A stretch of DNA of 64,000 bases. Origin: a virus. The position numbers and the translations under genes are program-made. Location: positions 1-64,000 of the IMG/VR virus record IMGVR_UViG_3300042453_001086. One strand, given 5' to 3'. The notes under the pieces are model-generated. The model ran no database searches, was not told where the DNA came from, and was given only the letters and a program-made list of their open reading frames with translations. Within the stretch, counting starts at the first letter, position 1; each line of letters begins with the position of its first letter. Of the stretch, positions 11,766 through 16,432 are shown one piece after another.

Positions 11766-11769
11766 CAAA

Positions 11770-13313: not shown

Positions 13314-13615
13314 AGGTGCTCTCCACTACACTATATATCTGCTACGATAGCGTGTAGTTTTGAGCGAAACCCAACATATTGGGCTGCAATCTCCAGTTTT
13401 TCATGCTTTTGATTGCCTTTGCGTGTCGGACTTGAACCAACAACCTCCCCACCATCGGGGGCGCTCTACCGATTGAGCTAACGCTGATAGAGGCTTGACC
13501 GCGTAAGCAGTCTGTTTGAGCATATCATGCCCGTGCCAATCTCGGACTAGGCTAACTTTGTACTACCTGGCCAGATAGTTGGCGTCTTTCTAGGCTATCT
13601 GCCTAACGACTACCA
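13314..13615 (-). ncRNA. Unassigned ~300-nt structured RNA (paralog 1) containing a tRNA-like domain at 13415-13494
   Basis: Fills the Leu-Gly spacer; 5' hairpin shared with 16169..16298; D-arm and T-arm present with a non-canonical anticodon arm. Confidence 0.6.
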
Positions 13616-13616
13616 A

Positions 13617-13698
13617 TGTCGCTGAGAGGACTTGAACCTCCACGAGTTACCTCACTGGAACCTAAACCCAGCGCGTCTACCAATTCCGCCACAGCGAC
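13617..13698 (-). tRNA. tRNA-Leu(TAG)
   Basis: Class II cloverleaf; loop TT-TAG-GT. Confidence 0.95.
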
Positions 13699-13699
13699 G

Positions 13700-13776
13700 T
13701 GGGGGCGGGAGTGGGATTTGAACCCACGACCTGCGGCTTATGAGACCGCTGAACTACCAGACTGTTCCATCCCGCG
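13700..13776 (-). tRNA. tRNA-Met(CAT), initiator type, CCA encoded
   Basis: CGCGGGA start with a C1 mismatch; loop CT-CAT-AA. Confidence 0.9.
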
Positions 13777-13787
13777 TTAACCATCAT

Positions 13788-13816
13788 ATTATACCCGAGA
13801 GGGTGGGGGATGTCAA
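13788..13816 (-). promoter_or_regulatory. Consensus sigma70 promoter for the fMet-Leu-ncRNA-Gly unit
   Basis: TTGACA-N17-TATAAT; the -35 sits inside GGGGG/CCCCC. Confidence 0.85.
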
Positions 13817-13821
13817 CCCCC

Positions 13822-14015
13822 CGTTGCTCGGCTCGCCACTTGCCCTTTGACTGGAGGCAAGAAACCAGGCGGGAGAGAGTCCCATCCGCACCACTTGTTT
13901 TTTAATGGGAAAACAAGAAACCAGAAGGGGGTTCACCCGACCAGGGCGCTTTTTATGTCATCCCGAGACAAGTAGGGTCATTGACTCCACCAGTGCTGTT
14001 ATAGACCATCCGTGT
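13822..14015 (-). ncRNA. manA-like RNA motif
   Basis: Two repeated modules GGUUUCUUG-loop-CAAGUGG, GUGGUGCGGAUGGG..CCCGCCUGG and a terminal GUGGCGAGCC; the loop UUCCCAU can pair with AUGGGA (pseudoknot); located beside tRNAs. Confidence 0.75.
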
Positions 14016-14016
14016 C

Positions 14017-14325
14017 TTATTTATTTGCAGGTACAAATGAGGTTTTATTGTCCCATTTGAATGGAGTGTTATTCATTTCATATTTTACAGAACCATTTGA
14101 TTGAGATTCCTTGGTGATAGAAATGAGACCTTGTGCTGAAGTATTACCTTCTTTAGCAGCTGCCTCAATACGCTCAGCAAACATAGTGTTATCAAGTTCA
14201 ATCAGTGCTTTAGAAATAGCAGAGATTACATAGACACTTTCTTTTTCAGAGAAAGAAAGTGCTGTGCGTAGAGCACATTCTGCCTTTTCTATATGATACT
14301 TAACTCTATCATTCATCTTCTTCAT
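14017..14325 (-). CDS. Hypothetical protein
   Basis: MKKMNDRVKYHIEKAECALRTAL...; start trimmed to limit overlap. Confidence 0.65.
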   Translation of the reverse strand: MKKMNDRVKYHIEKAECALRTALSFSEKESVYVISAISKALIELDNTMFAERIEAAAKEGNTSAQGLISITKESQSNGSVKYEMNNTPFKWDNKTSFVPANK

Positions 14326-14578
14326 CGTCTCCTCCTTTAATGTAGCATGGAACTGTGTCTGGGTCAAGCCATTTGGTGTATTCAAAATCCTCAATCGCTG
14401 TCATAAACTGCATTTCATTATCACAAAGATACATGTCACGGTAGCGACCAGTATACGAATCTACTTTTTGAATACGGCAATCAGGTTTACCATTGATCTC
14501 AAGTGTACCAACCTGTACATATCTATAAGGAAAACGATCAAGGATTGTCTTCACGCGGCTTTGGTTTGTTACACTCAT
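14309..14578 (-). CDS. Conserved cyanophage hypothetical protein
   Basis: RFPYRYVQVG...YRDMYLCDNEMQF...KWLDPDTVPCY. Confidence 0.8.
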   Translation of the reverse strand: MSVTNQSRVKTILDRFPYRYVQVGTLEINGKPDCRIQKVDSYTGRYRDMYLCDNEMQFMTAIEDFEYTKWLDPDTVPCYIKGGDDEEDE

Positions 14579-14720
14579 TACAGTAGTAGGAGAATCCTGT
14601 GCGAAAGTATTTTACTACTTGGTAGTGGGTGCTGTCAAGGGGTTGCTCGGTGTGGCACTTGGAACAGGTTCTAGTCCCACCACCAGCAGAGGTTTGTGAG
14701 CGTGTTGAGGAACTGCTCAT
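14538..14720 (-). CDS. Small Zn-finger protein (CxxC...CxxC); start uncertain
   Basis: RTCSKCHTEQPL...YYCNECNKP. Confidence 0.55.
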   Translation of the reverse strand: MSSSSTRSQTSAGGGTRTCSKCHTEQPLDSTHYQVVKYFRTGFSYYCNECNKPKPREDNP

Positions 14721-15249
14721 GGTAGACAGTGCGGCTTGGATTAGGTTTACCATCTTTCATGTCTTGGAGATACTGTATTATACCACGAACTACTGGGGTG
14801 TCTTGGAAGTATTCGTGCATTCGATAACAATCAAACTTTTCATTGTATTGAATGAAGTCATGTAATGGATCCATGTTACGACGGTAAGCATAGATGAATA
14901 CATCTTCATCTTTGATACCATGTTTGTTGATGATATCTAACGGATAAAACTTTTCTCCATCTTCATCTCTTTCTTCTTTTGTGTCAAACTTAAAGTGAAG
15001 ACCATCGTAATATTTGTTGTGTAACTCTTCATCTGGTGCTACACGAACTCTTTCATTCTCTCTCATAATGTATTCCATACGACCTTTGGCATCTTCGTTA
15101 GTCAAACGGAATACAATGTTGCCGATGTAGTAATGTACAGGACCGCCATAAAGATGGGATGATTCTCTTCTTCTGAATGACAGATGAGTAATCTCAAATC
15201 CACGGTCTTCATCTTCAGTTTCAACTAATCCTTGTGTCAACATAATCAA
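14671..15249 (-). CDS. Hypothetical protein, 192 aa
   Basis: Long ORF ending EQFLNTLTNLCWWWD; ATGA-type coupling upstream. Confidence 0.7.
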   Translation of the reverse strand: MIMLTQGLVETEDEDRGFEITHLSFRRRESSHLYGGPVHYYIGNIVFRLTNEDAKGRMEYIMRENERVRVAPDEELHNKYYDGLHFKFDTKEERDEDGEKFYPLDIINKHGIKDEDVFIYAYRRNMDPLHDFIQYNEKFDCYRMHEYFQDTPVVRGIIQYLQDMKDGKPNPSRTVYHEQFLNTLTNLCWWWD

Positions 15250-15461
15250 TAACGCTCAGGGATTTGATCGTAATCTAATGGATGGTCTTGTTTCTTTTCT
15301 TGCTTACGAAACTTTTTGAGGTCTTCAAACAAGTGTTTGATTTTTTTATATGCCTCATTAGCATCTTGTTTACCTGCCATTTCAGCAGCAATAATATACT
15401 CTACTTTTTTACCGAAGTCAAATAGATGATACTCAAAATCTGTTTGATGTTGATATGACAT
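15246..15461 (-). CDS. Conserved small cyanophage protein
   Basis: MSYQHQTDFEYHLFDFGKKVEYIIAAEMAGK; GGAGG SD. Confidence 0.75.
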   Translation of the reverse strand: MSYQHQTDFEYHLFDFGKKVEYIIAAEMAGKQDANEAYKKIKHLFEDLKKFRKQEKKQDHPLDYDQIPERY

Positions 15462-15485
15462 TTGACCTCCTTTGTTTTTAGTATA

Positions 15486-15578
15486 TAGGGGTGGAGGGAG
15501 TCGAACCCCCAACCGCGCACTAATCTGGTGCATACAGAAGGTATAAGCTTCTCGCTCTGCCAATTGAGCTACACCCCC
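15486..15578 (-). tRNA. tRNA-Ile(TAT) with a long variable arm
   Basis: Stem AGAAG/CTTCT, loop CT-TAT-AC; 25-nt variable region with a GCAC/GTGC stem. Confidence 0.85.
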
Positions 15579-15581
15579 TTA

Positions 15582-15654
15582 TGGAGAATAGCGGACTCGA
15601 ACCGCTGACATTCGCCTTGCAAAGGCGCTACTCTACCAACTGAGTTAATTCCCC
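15582..15654 (-). tRNA. tRNA-Ala(TGC)
   Basis: G3:U70; loop TT-TGC-AA. Confidence 0.95.
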
Positions 15655-15801
15655 CTGTATTCGGGCATAGTTTTCATATGGCATCAGAAGAACATCCCCA
15701 CCATTGGAAGTGGTAATAATAAAACTTTCTTTGTTTAGCATTACATTGTCCATGATTTCATCAAAGTCGTGACAAAAAGTTTCTTCTGTAATCGTTTTCA
15801 T
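15628..15801 (-). CDS. Phd/YefM antitoxin-like small protein; 3' end reads into tRNA-Ala
   Basis: MKTITEETFCHDFDEIMDNVMLNKESFIITTSNGGDVLLMPYENY resembles the Phd/YefM pattern. Confidence 0.55.
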   Translation of the reverse strand: MKTITEETFCHDFDEIMDNVMLNKESFIITTSNGGDVLLMPYENYARIQGELTQLVE

Positions 15802-16070
15802 ACCATACACTCCATGTCTTTTTCTTCTTGTAGGCAACCAATACTGGTTAGATATTCAATAGTTTCAGTGCAACCTCCTACACGATGACCATCAAGGGTA
15901 ACCTGAGGGAATGTTGAACCTTCACCAAACTCATTATAGAATGCTTCTCTGTCAAAGTCAACATCCAGTTTGTACTGTGTGTATTTGACAGTAAAACTAT
16001 CAAGGATAACCTTGAGTTTACGACAATATTCACAGTTATCTCGTGTGTAAATAACCAGTTGCGAAATCAT
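15798..16070 (-). CDS. Glutaredoxin
   Basis: CEYC active site; STFPQV and VGGC motifs. Confidence 0.9.
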   Translation of the reverse strand: MISQLVIYTRDNCEYCRKLKVILDSFTVKYTQYKLDVDFDREAFYNEFGEGSTFPQVTLDGHRVGGCTETIEYLTSIGCLQEEKDMECMV

Positions 16071-16091
16071 TAATCTCTCCTAAAAGAAGAA

Positions 16092-16165
16092 TCGGGATGA
16101 CAGGATTCGAACCTGCGACATCTCGCTCCCAAAGCGAGTGCTCTACCAAACTGAGCTACATCCCG
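16092..16165 (-). tRNA. tRNA-Pro(TGG)
   Basis: Cloverleaf; loop TT-TGG-GA. Confidence 0.95.
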
Positions 16166-16168
16166 TGA

Positions 16169-16298
16169 TGGAGTAAGCGTAATATACCTCAAGGGCATAA
16201 CAGAGGCTTACCCTCTATCGTATCACAGCAGACAAGTTTATCTCCAGGCGCTTGTGATAAGTTGGTCTCCTTCTAGGCTATCTGCCTAACGAGTACCA
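16169..16298 (-). ncRNA. Unassigned ~130-nt structured RNA (paralog 2) between tRNA-Ser and tRNA-Pro
   Basis: 5' hairpin nearly identical to 13615-13575 with compensatory changes; further stems TATCACA/TGTGATA and AGAGG-GTAAG-CCTCT; ends in CCA. Confidence 0.65.
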
Positions 16299-16300
16299 AG

Positions 16301-16385
16301 CGGAAGTGGTAGGATTTGAACCCACGATGGCTTTCACCATGCTTGTTTTCAAGACAAGTGCCTTAAACCACTCGGCCACACTTCC
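16301..16385 (-). tRNA. tRNA-Ser(TGA)
   Basis: Class II cloverleaf; loop CT-TGA-AA; G73. Confidence 0.95.
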
Positions 16386-16402: not shown

Positions 16403-16432
16403 ATTATATAGGAGGTCTGGGGGGTCTGTCAA
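16403..16432 (-). promoter_or_regulatory. sigma70 promoter for the Ser-ncRNA-Pro-grx unit
   Basis: TTGACA-N18-TATAAT; the -35 sits inside GGGGGG/CCCCCC. Confidence 0.75.

Follow-up and report, generated by a model that had tools for sequence, protein, structure and literature searches.

The two tRNA spacers and their features

The stretch analysed here, referred to as the window, is the first 64 kb (64,000 nucleotides) of the 189,882-bp viral record IMGVR_UViG_3300042453_001086, which is of the T4-like cyanophage type, and its minus strand carries 22 tRNA genes between positions 11769 and 18058. Two spacers of this tRNA island were studied, spacer 1 (13488-13616, minus strand, after tRNA-Leu(tag)) and spacer 2 (16166-16299, minus strand, after tRNA-Ser(tga)), which an earlier note, made from the sequence alone, had taken for two paralogous non-coding RNAs (ncRNAs). 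They contain three RNA modules, each structured and independent of the others, encoded in the same sense as the tRNAs and holding a fixed place with respect to tRNA ends: a hairpin, named H, present in both spacers (copies 1 and 2), a module named M3 in spacer 2, and a circularly permuted form of the abiF RNA motif in spacer 1. H and M3 have not been described previously, and the 3.1-kb query around the two spacers was covered to at most 6% by any record of the phage collection. The features of the two units, all on the minus strand, are as follows.

13788..13816, minus strand: sigma70-type promoter TTGACA-17-TATAAT, 12 of 12 consensus positions, heading tRNA-Met, tRNA-Leu and spacer 1
13617..13698, minus strand: tRNA-Leu(tag), CCA not encoded, with the discriminator at 13617 abutting H
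13579..13616, minus strand: H copy 1, type A, ...A-GUC-G-[UUAGGC-AGAUA-GCCUAG]-AAA-GAC..., 65.8 bits with covariance model R1
13528..13578, minus strand: variable middle of spacer 1, local hairpins, kept in close relatives only (L064, L100)
13485..13527, minus strand: circularly permuted abiF-like motif, UGAUA-U-GCU-CAAACA-[GACUGC-UUAC-GCGGUC]-A-AGC-CUC-UAUCA
16403..16432, minus strand: sigma70-type promoter TTGACA-18-TATAAT, 12 of 12 consensus positions, heading tRNA-Ser and spacer 2
16300..16385, minus strand: tRNA-Ser(tga), CCA not encoded
16262..16299, minus strand: H copy 2, type B, ...A-CUC-G-[UUAGGC-AGAUA-GCCUAG]-AAG-GAG..., 61.2 bits with covariance model R1
16226..16261, minus strand: variable middle hairpin of spacer 2, UAUCACA...UGUGAUA, replaced by an unrelated hairpin in relatives
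16166..16225, minus strand: M3 module, ending 5 nucleotides (nt) before tRNA-Pro, 76.4 bits with covariance model R2
16092..16165, minus strand: tRNA-Pro(tgg), whose 5' end sets the 3' limit of spacer 2

The hairpin shared by the two spacers

Pairwise comparison showed that identity between the two spacers is limited to the first ~40 nt, the remainder giving no convincing alignment, and a 22-mer common to both copies occurs exactly twice in the window in comparison to 0 occurrences expected from shuffles. The homology of the two spacers is limited to the 38-nt hairpin H; thus, of the two paralogous RNAs that had been proposed, one shared 38-nt module stands, but the ~130-nt spacers are otherwise mosaics. 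The other basic claims of the earlier note about this element, namely that it is a common sequence directly following a tRNA and that the differences between the copies are compensatory, were borne out. tRNA-Leu ends at 13617 and the helix opens at 13616; for tRNA-Ser, Rfam places the end at 16301 and ARAGORN at 16300, with the helix opening at 16299; and between the copies a G-C pair changes to C-G and a U.G pair to U-A in a stem that is upheld by 87 distinct homologues.

The outer stem of H has 5 bp and is separated by a bulged A from a 3-bp stem; a 1x3 internal loop then leads to an upper stem of 6 bp, which is capped by the loop AGAUA. The 42-nt pieces containing the two copies gave fold z-scores of -3.5 (copy 1) and -3.2 (copy 2). 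Across the family the architecture includes a fixed UC/GA step, an internal loop with G opposite AAR, a nearly fixed upper stem and a terminal loop of the form NNAYA. No Rfam family was found on spacer 1 or spacer 2, even at E up to 10, in agreement with the earlier note, which could assign no family; the shared hairpin is thus covered by no described family. The wcaG RNA, which had been raised as a possible identity, likewise gave no match on either spacer at E up to 10 (gathering score 42 bits) and lies separately at 13825-13925. The tRNA model (RF00005) did not match H, whose loop is of 5 nt and not 7. No further diverged copies were detected in the window or in the phage genome by covariance model R1, a literature search for the hairpin sequence returned no match, and the open reading frames (ORFs) sought in both spacers were short frames only, running into the tRNAs.

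Several known motifs were compared with H and rejected. A kink-turn is excluded by a C-G pair on the non-bulged strand where G.A pairs are needed; by inspection, none of the sarcin-ricin/loop E, 11-nt tetraloop receptor, T-loop and GNRA-like loop motifs fits the alignment, and neither does the MS2-type ANYA loop. Pairing of the AGAUA loop with a downstream CUAUCU was also discarded, the partner being found only in the copy-1 lineage and missing from most instances of H.

Spread and covariation of H

H occurs ~150 times in IMG/VR viral contigs, and blastn with the 38-nt piece alone identified it in the isolates S-SZBM1, DSL-LC02 (two copies), DSL-LC03 and S-EIVl. A degenerate pattern of the 24-nt inner core matched at least 120 IMG/VR contigs, from which 87 distinct sequences formed the covariation set, with the outer stem left unconstrained by the search pattern. 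The results showed that 95.9% of the alignment cells are paired, whereas shuffles gave 79.7% and none of 500 reached the observed value; pairing drops to 31-47% when the partner strand is slid. Double changes were observed at five outer-stem pairs, for example U-A/G-C/C-G/A-U. This outer-stem covariation upholds the claim of selection on RNA structure that had been made from the two copies. At two positions a U.G pair is present in 50 to 52 of the 87 sequences, and since these become mismatches when read on the other strand, they fit folding on the tRNA-sense strand only.

A looser pattern, in which the terminal and internal loops were left free, gave 152 matches. The terminal loop was NNAYA in 148 of these (AGAUA in 85, ACAUA in 36, CCAUA in 8, and others), and the internal loop was likewise AAA (91) or AAG (57) in 148. 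The conservation of loops that the pattern had left free indicates that the unpaired bases of H are under selection. A linkage between the purine of AAR and the G-C/C-G pair was also considered; it has exceptions (L018, L038, L115) and was read as a lineage correlation.

When one genome from each of 185,579 species was scanned with the H pattern, only 4 single matches were obtained, all on contigs of 0.8-2.5 kb from metagenome-assembled genomes. Covariance model R1, applied to samples of 150 genomes of the picocyanobacterial family and 150 of the phylum, found no H otherwise. A repeat of a host CRISPR array is also not what was seen, as the 185,579-species scan gave only single copies. A host origin of H, as antitoxin or CRISPR repeat, was therefore rejected, no host-encoded H being present in the genomes searched, and H is so far phage-only.

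Genomic contexts of H

Of the 685 tRNAs found in H loci, every one shares the strand of H and 0 are opposite. In 73 of 128 H instances (57%) a tRNA ends 6-11 nt before the start of the pattern, which means that the helix opens 0-2 nt past the discriminator; in 50 of the 73 no nucleotide intervenes, and twelve different anticodons are involved. The ends of the two spacers coincide with tRNA processing sites, as the earlier note had held. In 9 of 75 distinct spacers H makes up the entire inter-tRNA spacer, with 3-7 nt to the next tRNA, and in the others the sequence 3' of H is heterogeneous.

Conserved unpaired nucleotides in a compact hairpin, placed at exact processing junctions, would also be compatible with H being a small ligand-sensing or self-cleaving RNA (a mini-riboswitch or ribozyme). 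We regard this as barely probable, because no Rfam ribozyme or riboswitch matched at E up to 10, because H is a single helix stack of 38 nt in comparison to the multi-helix cores of known ribozymes, and because it is accompanied by no consistent expression platform or downstream gene class. In addition, a 2',3'-cyclic phosphate at a tRNA end prevents CCA addition, so that a cleavage leaving this group would prevent the maturation of the upstream tRNA by CCA addition.

A near-consensus sigma70 promoter is present within 300 nt upstream of H in 53 of 91 distinct contexts and downstream in 16 of 91, the overall density of such sites being about 0.65 per kb. The distances cluster at 19 nt for the order promoter-H and at 82-104 nt for the order promoter-tRNA-H. 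The first of these corresponds to H in 5' leaders, where it lies 19 nt past the -10 element of TTGACT-17-TATAAT and precedes either a small ORF (phrog_504) or tRNA-Tyr. In S-EIVl-like contigs H is located ~65 nt ahead of the major-head-protein gene and is enclosed by an extra outer helix, and in phage transfer-messenger RNAs (tmRNAs) the hairpin ahead of the tag reading frame bears H at its tip, within an insertion of 66 nt. These tmRNA, head-gene and leader contexts show that H is not restricted to cyanophages.

Two observations were made on these contexts. The tmRNAs that bear H are two-piece (permuted) molecules of the beta-proteobacterial type (L088 26-476, L206 1274-1729, L207, L213, L114). 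In one group of 5' leaders (L007, L057, L060, L023), H and the hairpin following it are flanked by a direct repeat, CGTTCATCC, whose downstream copy lies between the Shine-Dalgarno sequence and the ATG of the phrog_504 gene; this repeat could have a regulatory role or be what an old insertion left behind.

The occurrence of H in unrelated phage lineages and varied contexts, including the insertion in a tmRNA hairpin loop, the frequent proximity of HNH endonuclease genes, and the direct repeat CGTTCATCC around H in one locus group would be expected if H were a selfish DNA palindrome, similar to a miniature inverted-repeat transposable element, a repetitive extragenic palindrome or attC, that is tolerated in non-coding spots with no function as RNA. 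Such an explanation is very improbable in view of the 685 to 0 orientation with tRNAs, the two U.G pairs that would become A-C mismatches on the other strand, the low copy number of 1-2 per genome, and the attC R-boxes, which are not conserved in the H alignment. Furthermore, compensated divergence of the outer stem around an unchanged core argues for long purifying selection and not for recent copying.

The same contexts bear on a second explanation, according to which H is purely a processing or stability element in cis with no role in trans. As a trailer hairpin it would shield tRNAs without encoded CCA from 3' exonucleases until the RNase Z cut, and as a blunt 5' hairpin it would guard the downstream RNA from RNase E or RNase J. 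The flush junction with the discriminator (0 nt in 50 of 73), the promoter-proximal location, the placement upstream of ORFs including the major head protein gene, and the heterogeneity of the downstream cargo all agree with this. On the other hand, loop, internal loop and upper stem are conserved far past the needs of stability, a genome has 1-2 copies of H in comparison to 20 or more tRNAs, and H is found in arrays of closely packed tRNAs and at the tip of a tmRNA hairpin, places with no end to protect. We consider a role purely in cis unlikely, but more probable than a selfish palindrome or a ribozyme.

The M3 module of spacer 2

M3 forms an 8-bp helix between 16206-16213 and 16171-16178 around a nearly invariant 27-nt loop. 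The GUAAG and GCUUAC of copy 2, which had been suggested to form a pseudoknot, are the two strands of this plain long-range helix, which covaries and describes the region better. At least 120 viral contigs carry M3. Pairing in its helix reaches 99.7%, four pairs change on both sides, and a G.U pair is found in 65 of 87 M3 sequences. In every case the module ends 8-14 nt ahead of the 5' end of a tRNA, an abiF motif, another, unassigned RNA, or an ORF with its Shine-Dalgarno sequence. With covariance model R2, M3 is single-copy in the phage genome, and no Rfam family matched it at the gathering threshold or at E up to 10. A hammerhead core was considered and rejected, as CUGAUGA is found in only some M3 variants. 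The RNA of spacer 2 would end in ...CAUCA before tRNA-Pro and not in CCA, as had been supposed.

The motif AAGCCUCU, which lies in this module, is not conserved in M3, relatives carrying AAGUCACU or AAGUCCCU instead, and its presence in both copies is therefore not homology. GCUUAC and AAGCCUCU do occur in both spacers, as the earlier note had pointed out, but in opposite order and within different modules. As a separate observation, a conserved sequence, AGGAAGTGCAA..CCCTCTCGCTGG...GATGA.GGAAAAGGTGAT.CTGTC, was repeatedly found directly after M3 (L009, L223, L268, L279, L283 and others) and may be another ncRNA.

The permuted abiF motif of spacer 1

In copy 1, AAGCCUCU is part of the permuted abiF (RF03085) motif; abiF RNA acts as antitoxin to the HEPN toxins AbiF/Abi_2. 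The comparison was made with a related locus, L096, which carries a canonical abiF RNA (53.8 bits with Rfam) whose core, A-AGC-CUCUCAACGAU-GCU-CAAAUC, includes AAGCCUCU. Canonical abiF is found 5-10 nt upstream of tRNAs in 15 H loci, that is, in tRNA leaders of related phages at the same kind of site, and these copies show covariation of P2 from AGC/GCU to UGC/GCA. Copy 1 holds the core nucleotides of canonical abiF (A-AGC-CUCU... loop ...GAU-GCU-CAAA(U)C) in rotated linear order: A-AGC-CUC..., ...AU-GCU-CAAAC and a helix rich in GC all occur at 13485-13527, and their cyclic order is unchanged. The same arrangement is present in 7 relatives (L064, L082, L089, L100, L161, L164, L169).

The differences from abiF are those of a circular permutation. 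The linear topology of abiF (5' P1, core, 3' P1, closed terminal loop) is not found in copy 1; a loop closes the outer helix, an open helix of 5 bp stands in place of the terminal loop, and the minimum free energy fold of the motif correspondingly has an open helix, then GCU/AGC, then a closed P1. The GC-rich P1 of abiF is present as this closed hairpin, with four compensating variants among the 8 contigs (GACUGC/GCGGUC, GACUGC/GUGGUC, GAUUGC/GCAAUC and GAUUUC/GGAAUC), and the GCUUAC of copy 1 is loop and stem of the closing hairpin, where relatives differ. In some canonical copies the terminal loop is extended into a helix, indicating that this end of abiF is variable. The hairpin H is not abiF.

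No Abi_2 gene was found in the phage, and the motif is thus an orphan, lacking the usual association of abiF. Abi_2 is encoded by 15 of 301 picocyanobacterial genomes, and an abiF-like RNA lies just upstream of Abi_2 in 4 of 6 picocyanobacterial loci examined. These host RNAs (L137-L142) have a 15-nt loop instead of 7 nt, and the Rfam abiF model under-calls this picocyanobacterial clade. In C. difficile the abiF RNA binds and neutralises the AbiF/Abi_2 toxin (bioRxiv 10.1101/2025.04.15.648962), and a canonical abiF small RNA has been reported in cyanophage S-CREM1 (PMC9964418). The abiF part of copy 1 is thus an antitoxin motif in a phage that lacks the toxin gene but infects a host group that has it, and would most likely serve as a decoy antitoxin against host AbiF. 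The antitoxin-like role that the earlier note had entertained thus received independent support, since the abiF antitoxin RNA has AAGCCUCU as its core and copy 1 carries this RNA in permuted form.

Proposed composite RNAs punctuated by tRNAs

Taken with their contexts, orientation and promoter proximity, these modules suggest that the two loci encode composite small RNAs that are punctuated by tRNAs and assembled from shuffled conserved modules, with H as a handle for a protein or RNase and the abiF part as a decoy; we give this reading a probability of roughly 0.45. Each unit would be transcribed from its consensus promoter in the order promoter, one or two tRNAs, spacer, next tRNA. Since the tRNAs have no encoded CCA, RNase Z is expected to cut past the discriminator, exactly at the first base pair of H, and the RNase P cut at the next tRNA would set the 3' end and release the composite RNA; these processing sites and the release are what we infer from the positions of the modules. 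H would become the blunt, hairpin-capped 5' end of the downstream RNA or, where there is no downstream cargo, a free RNA of 40-50 nt. The cargo of copy 1 would include the permuted abiF, acting as a decoy against host AbiF, and that of copy 2 would be M3 as a second new leader module.

In this scheme H would be a sequence-specific handle placed where expression is highest. The conservation of its loop and upper stem, the free covariation of its outer stem, and its placement in highly expressed or most stable RNA contexts suggest a specific protein or RNase as partner, and binding could lead either to capping and stabilisation in cis or to titration in trans.

Several observations weigh against such composite RNAs. 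Only 2 of the 22 tRNAs of the window carry H, and H is therefore no general requirement for tRNA processing, while a role as 5' cap leaves H between adjacent tRNAs or inside tmRNA unexplained. Unlike abiF, H has no counterpart in the host genomes searched, and a role for H as an antitoxin mimic is unsupported. The permuted abiF family is small and closely related (8 contigs), and its covariation is built on few events. Even at E up to 10 the whole phage genome yielded nothing for the RF03085 model (gathering score 37 bits), the permuted motif being missed because the model is linear, and the abiF-like matches in host genomes score 30.7-33.6 bits, under the gathering score of 37.

A broader proposal is that tRNA arrays are an expression and processing platform for RNA counter-defence, with RNase Z and RNase P cutting out the protein-binding RNAs H, M3 and canonical or permuted abiF, and with H and M3 as new decoys or inhibitors of host defence or decay proteins that target RNA. 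H and M3 would then act beside replacement tRNAs and the orphan Phd-like antitoxin of the island (listed below). We consider this proposal doubtful, and less probable than either the composite RNAs or a role of H purely in cis.

Phage tRNA arrays are now viewed as counter-defence loci, and their non-tRNA spacers have been ignored since the species 1 and 2 RNAs of T4. The spacers of the freshwater and estuarine phages studied here are built from at least three conserved RNA modules at precise positions, with H flush after a tRNA and M3 and abiF just before one. H and M3 each have ~100 or more natural variants with clean covariation and are ready to be turned into families of the Rfam type and to serve in pull-down or structural studies. 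With the permuted abiF, a cyanophage is connected to its hosts' AbiF/Cas13-ancestor toxin-RNA system through a natural circular permutation, which covariance models miss. If H or M3 bind host factors, they could become new RNA-based tools for anti-defence or RNA stability.

Comparison with known systems

The nearest functional analogues, by analogy of position, are rnaC and rnaD of T4 (species 1 and 2), which are also small non-tRNA RNAs inside the tRNA cluster of a T4-type phage and are co-transcribed and released along with the tRNAs. In the T4 annotation tRNA-Arg occupies 71173-71247 and rnaD 71053-71171, so that rnaD opens 1 nt past tRNA-Arg. The T4 tRNA-Arg encodes CCA, in contrast to the tRNAs of the window, and covariance model R1 scored no higher than 7.2 bits on T4 69000-74000, and that on the wrong strand, showing no homology to rnaC/rnaD. 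To our knowledge rnaC and rnaD still have no known function.

In the tRNA-miRNA-encoded RNA units of murine gammaherpesvirus 68 and in engineered arrays of tRNAs and guide RNAs, RNase Z makes the hairpin 5' end after the tRNA. These are similar to the present loci in using a tRNA as processing handle for a directly following small RNA; they are eukaryotic or synthetic, their hairpins feed miRNA or Cas pathways, and there is no homology. For the abiF part, a model is provided by pseudo-ToxI of phage phiTE, a phage mimic of a host type III RNA antitoxin that neutralises an abortive-infection toxin, and the motif of copy 1 could likewise be a phage copy of a host RNA antitoxin. Pseudo-ToxI belongs to another toxin-antitoxin family and consists of tandem repeats processed by the toxin, for which nothing equivalent is shown in the window. 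The wcaG RNA (RF01761) is a cyanophage ncRNA in the same island that is unrelated to both elements.

Other elements of the tRNA island

The Rfam scan of the window identified PhotoRC-II, a glutamine riboswitch and the wcaG RNA, and a glutaredoxin gene also lies within the tRNA island. The remaining features of the island are as follows.

13825-13925, minus strand: wcaG RNA, full length, 95.8 bits
15628-15837, minus strand: orphan Phd/YefM-like antitoxin gene, phrog_375 at E = 2e-10, Pfam 24.7 bits in comparison to a cut-off of 29.8
13417..13487, minus strand: degenerate tRNA-like element, called as tRNA-His(atg), 39.4 bits with Rfam
13314..13416, minus strand: structured spacer ahead of tRNA-Gly, three hairpins, fold z = -3.8, kept in L100, L082 and L169

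No toxin partner was seen beside the Phd/YefM-like gene; the tRNA array of DSL-LC02 contains annotated antitoxin and MazE-like genes. The wcaG RNA adjoins the upstream side of the promoter of tRNA-Met and tRNA-Leu and does not precede a protein gene. In S-CREM1 the wcaG, manA and abiF RNAs are grouped beside tRNA-Leu (PMC9964418), and the two placements together suggest an ncRNA island.

The element called as tRNA-His(atg) has an anticodon loop, CGAUGGU, without U33 and 2 mismatches in the acceptor stem. It is an insertion relative to L100 and L082, which do not have it at that place, and is present in L161. The absence of U33, the acceptor mismatches and the absence from L100 and L082 indicate a tRNA-like element and not a decoding tRNA.

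Two further tRNA genes were found to be unusual. tRNA-Ile(tat) (15486-15578, minus strand) is 93 nt long with a long extra arm, and it has 95-nt homologues in DSL-LC02 and a 98.8%-identical stretch in SynMITS9220M01. An odd recurrent tRNA-like gene, CTCTGGTAGTCTATTGGTAAGGAC..., follows H or M3 in several contigs (L004 1569-1640, L035, L108, L225, L237, L319); its anticodon region is unusual, and ARAGORN calls it tRNA-Leu(caa) or tRNA-???(gaca).

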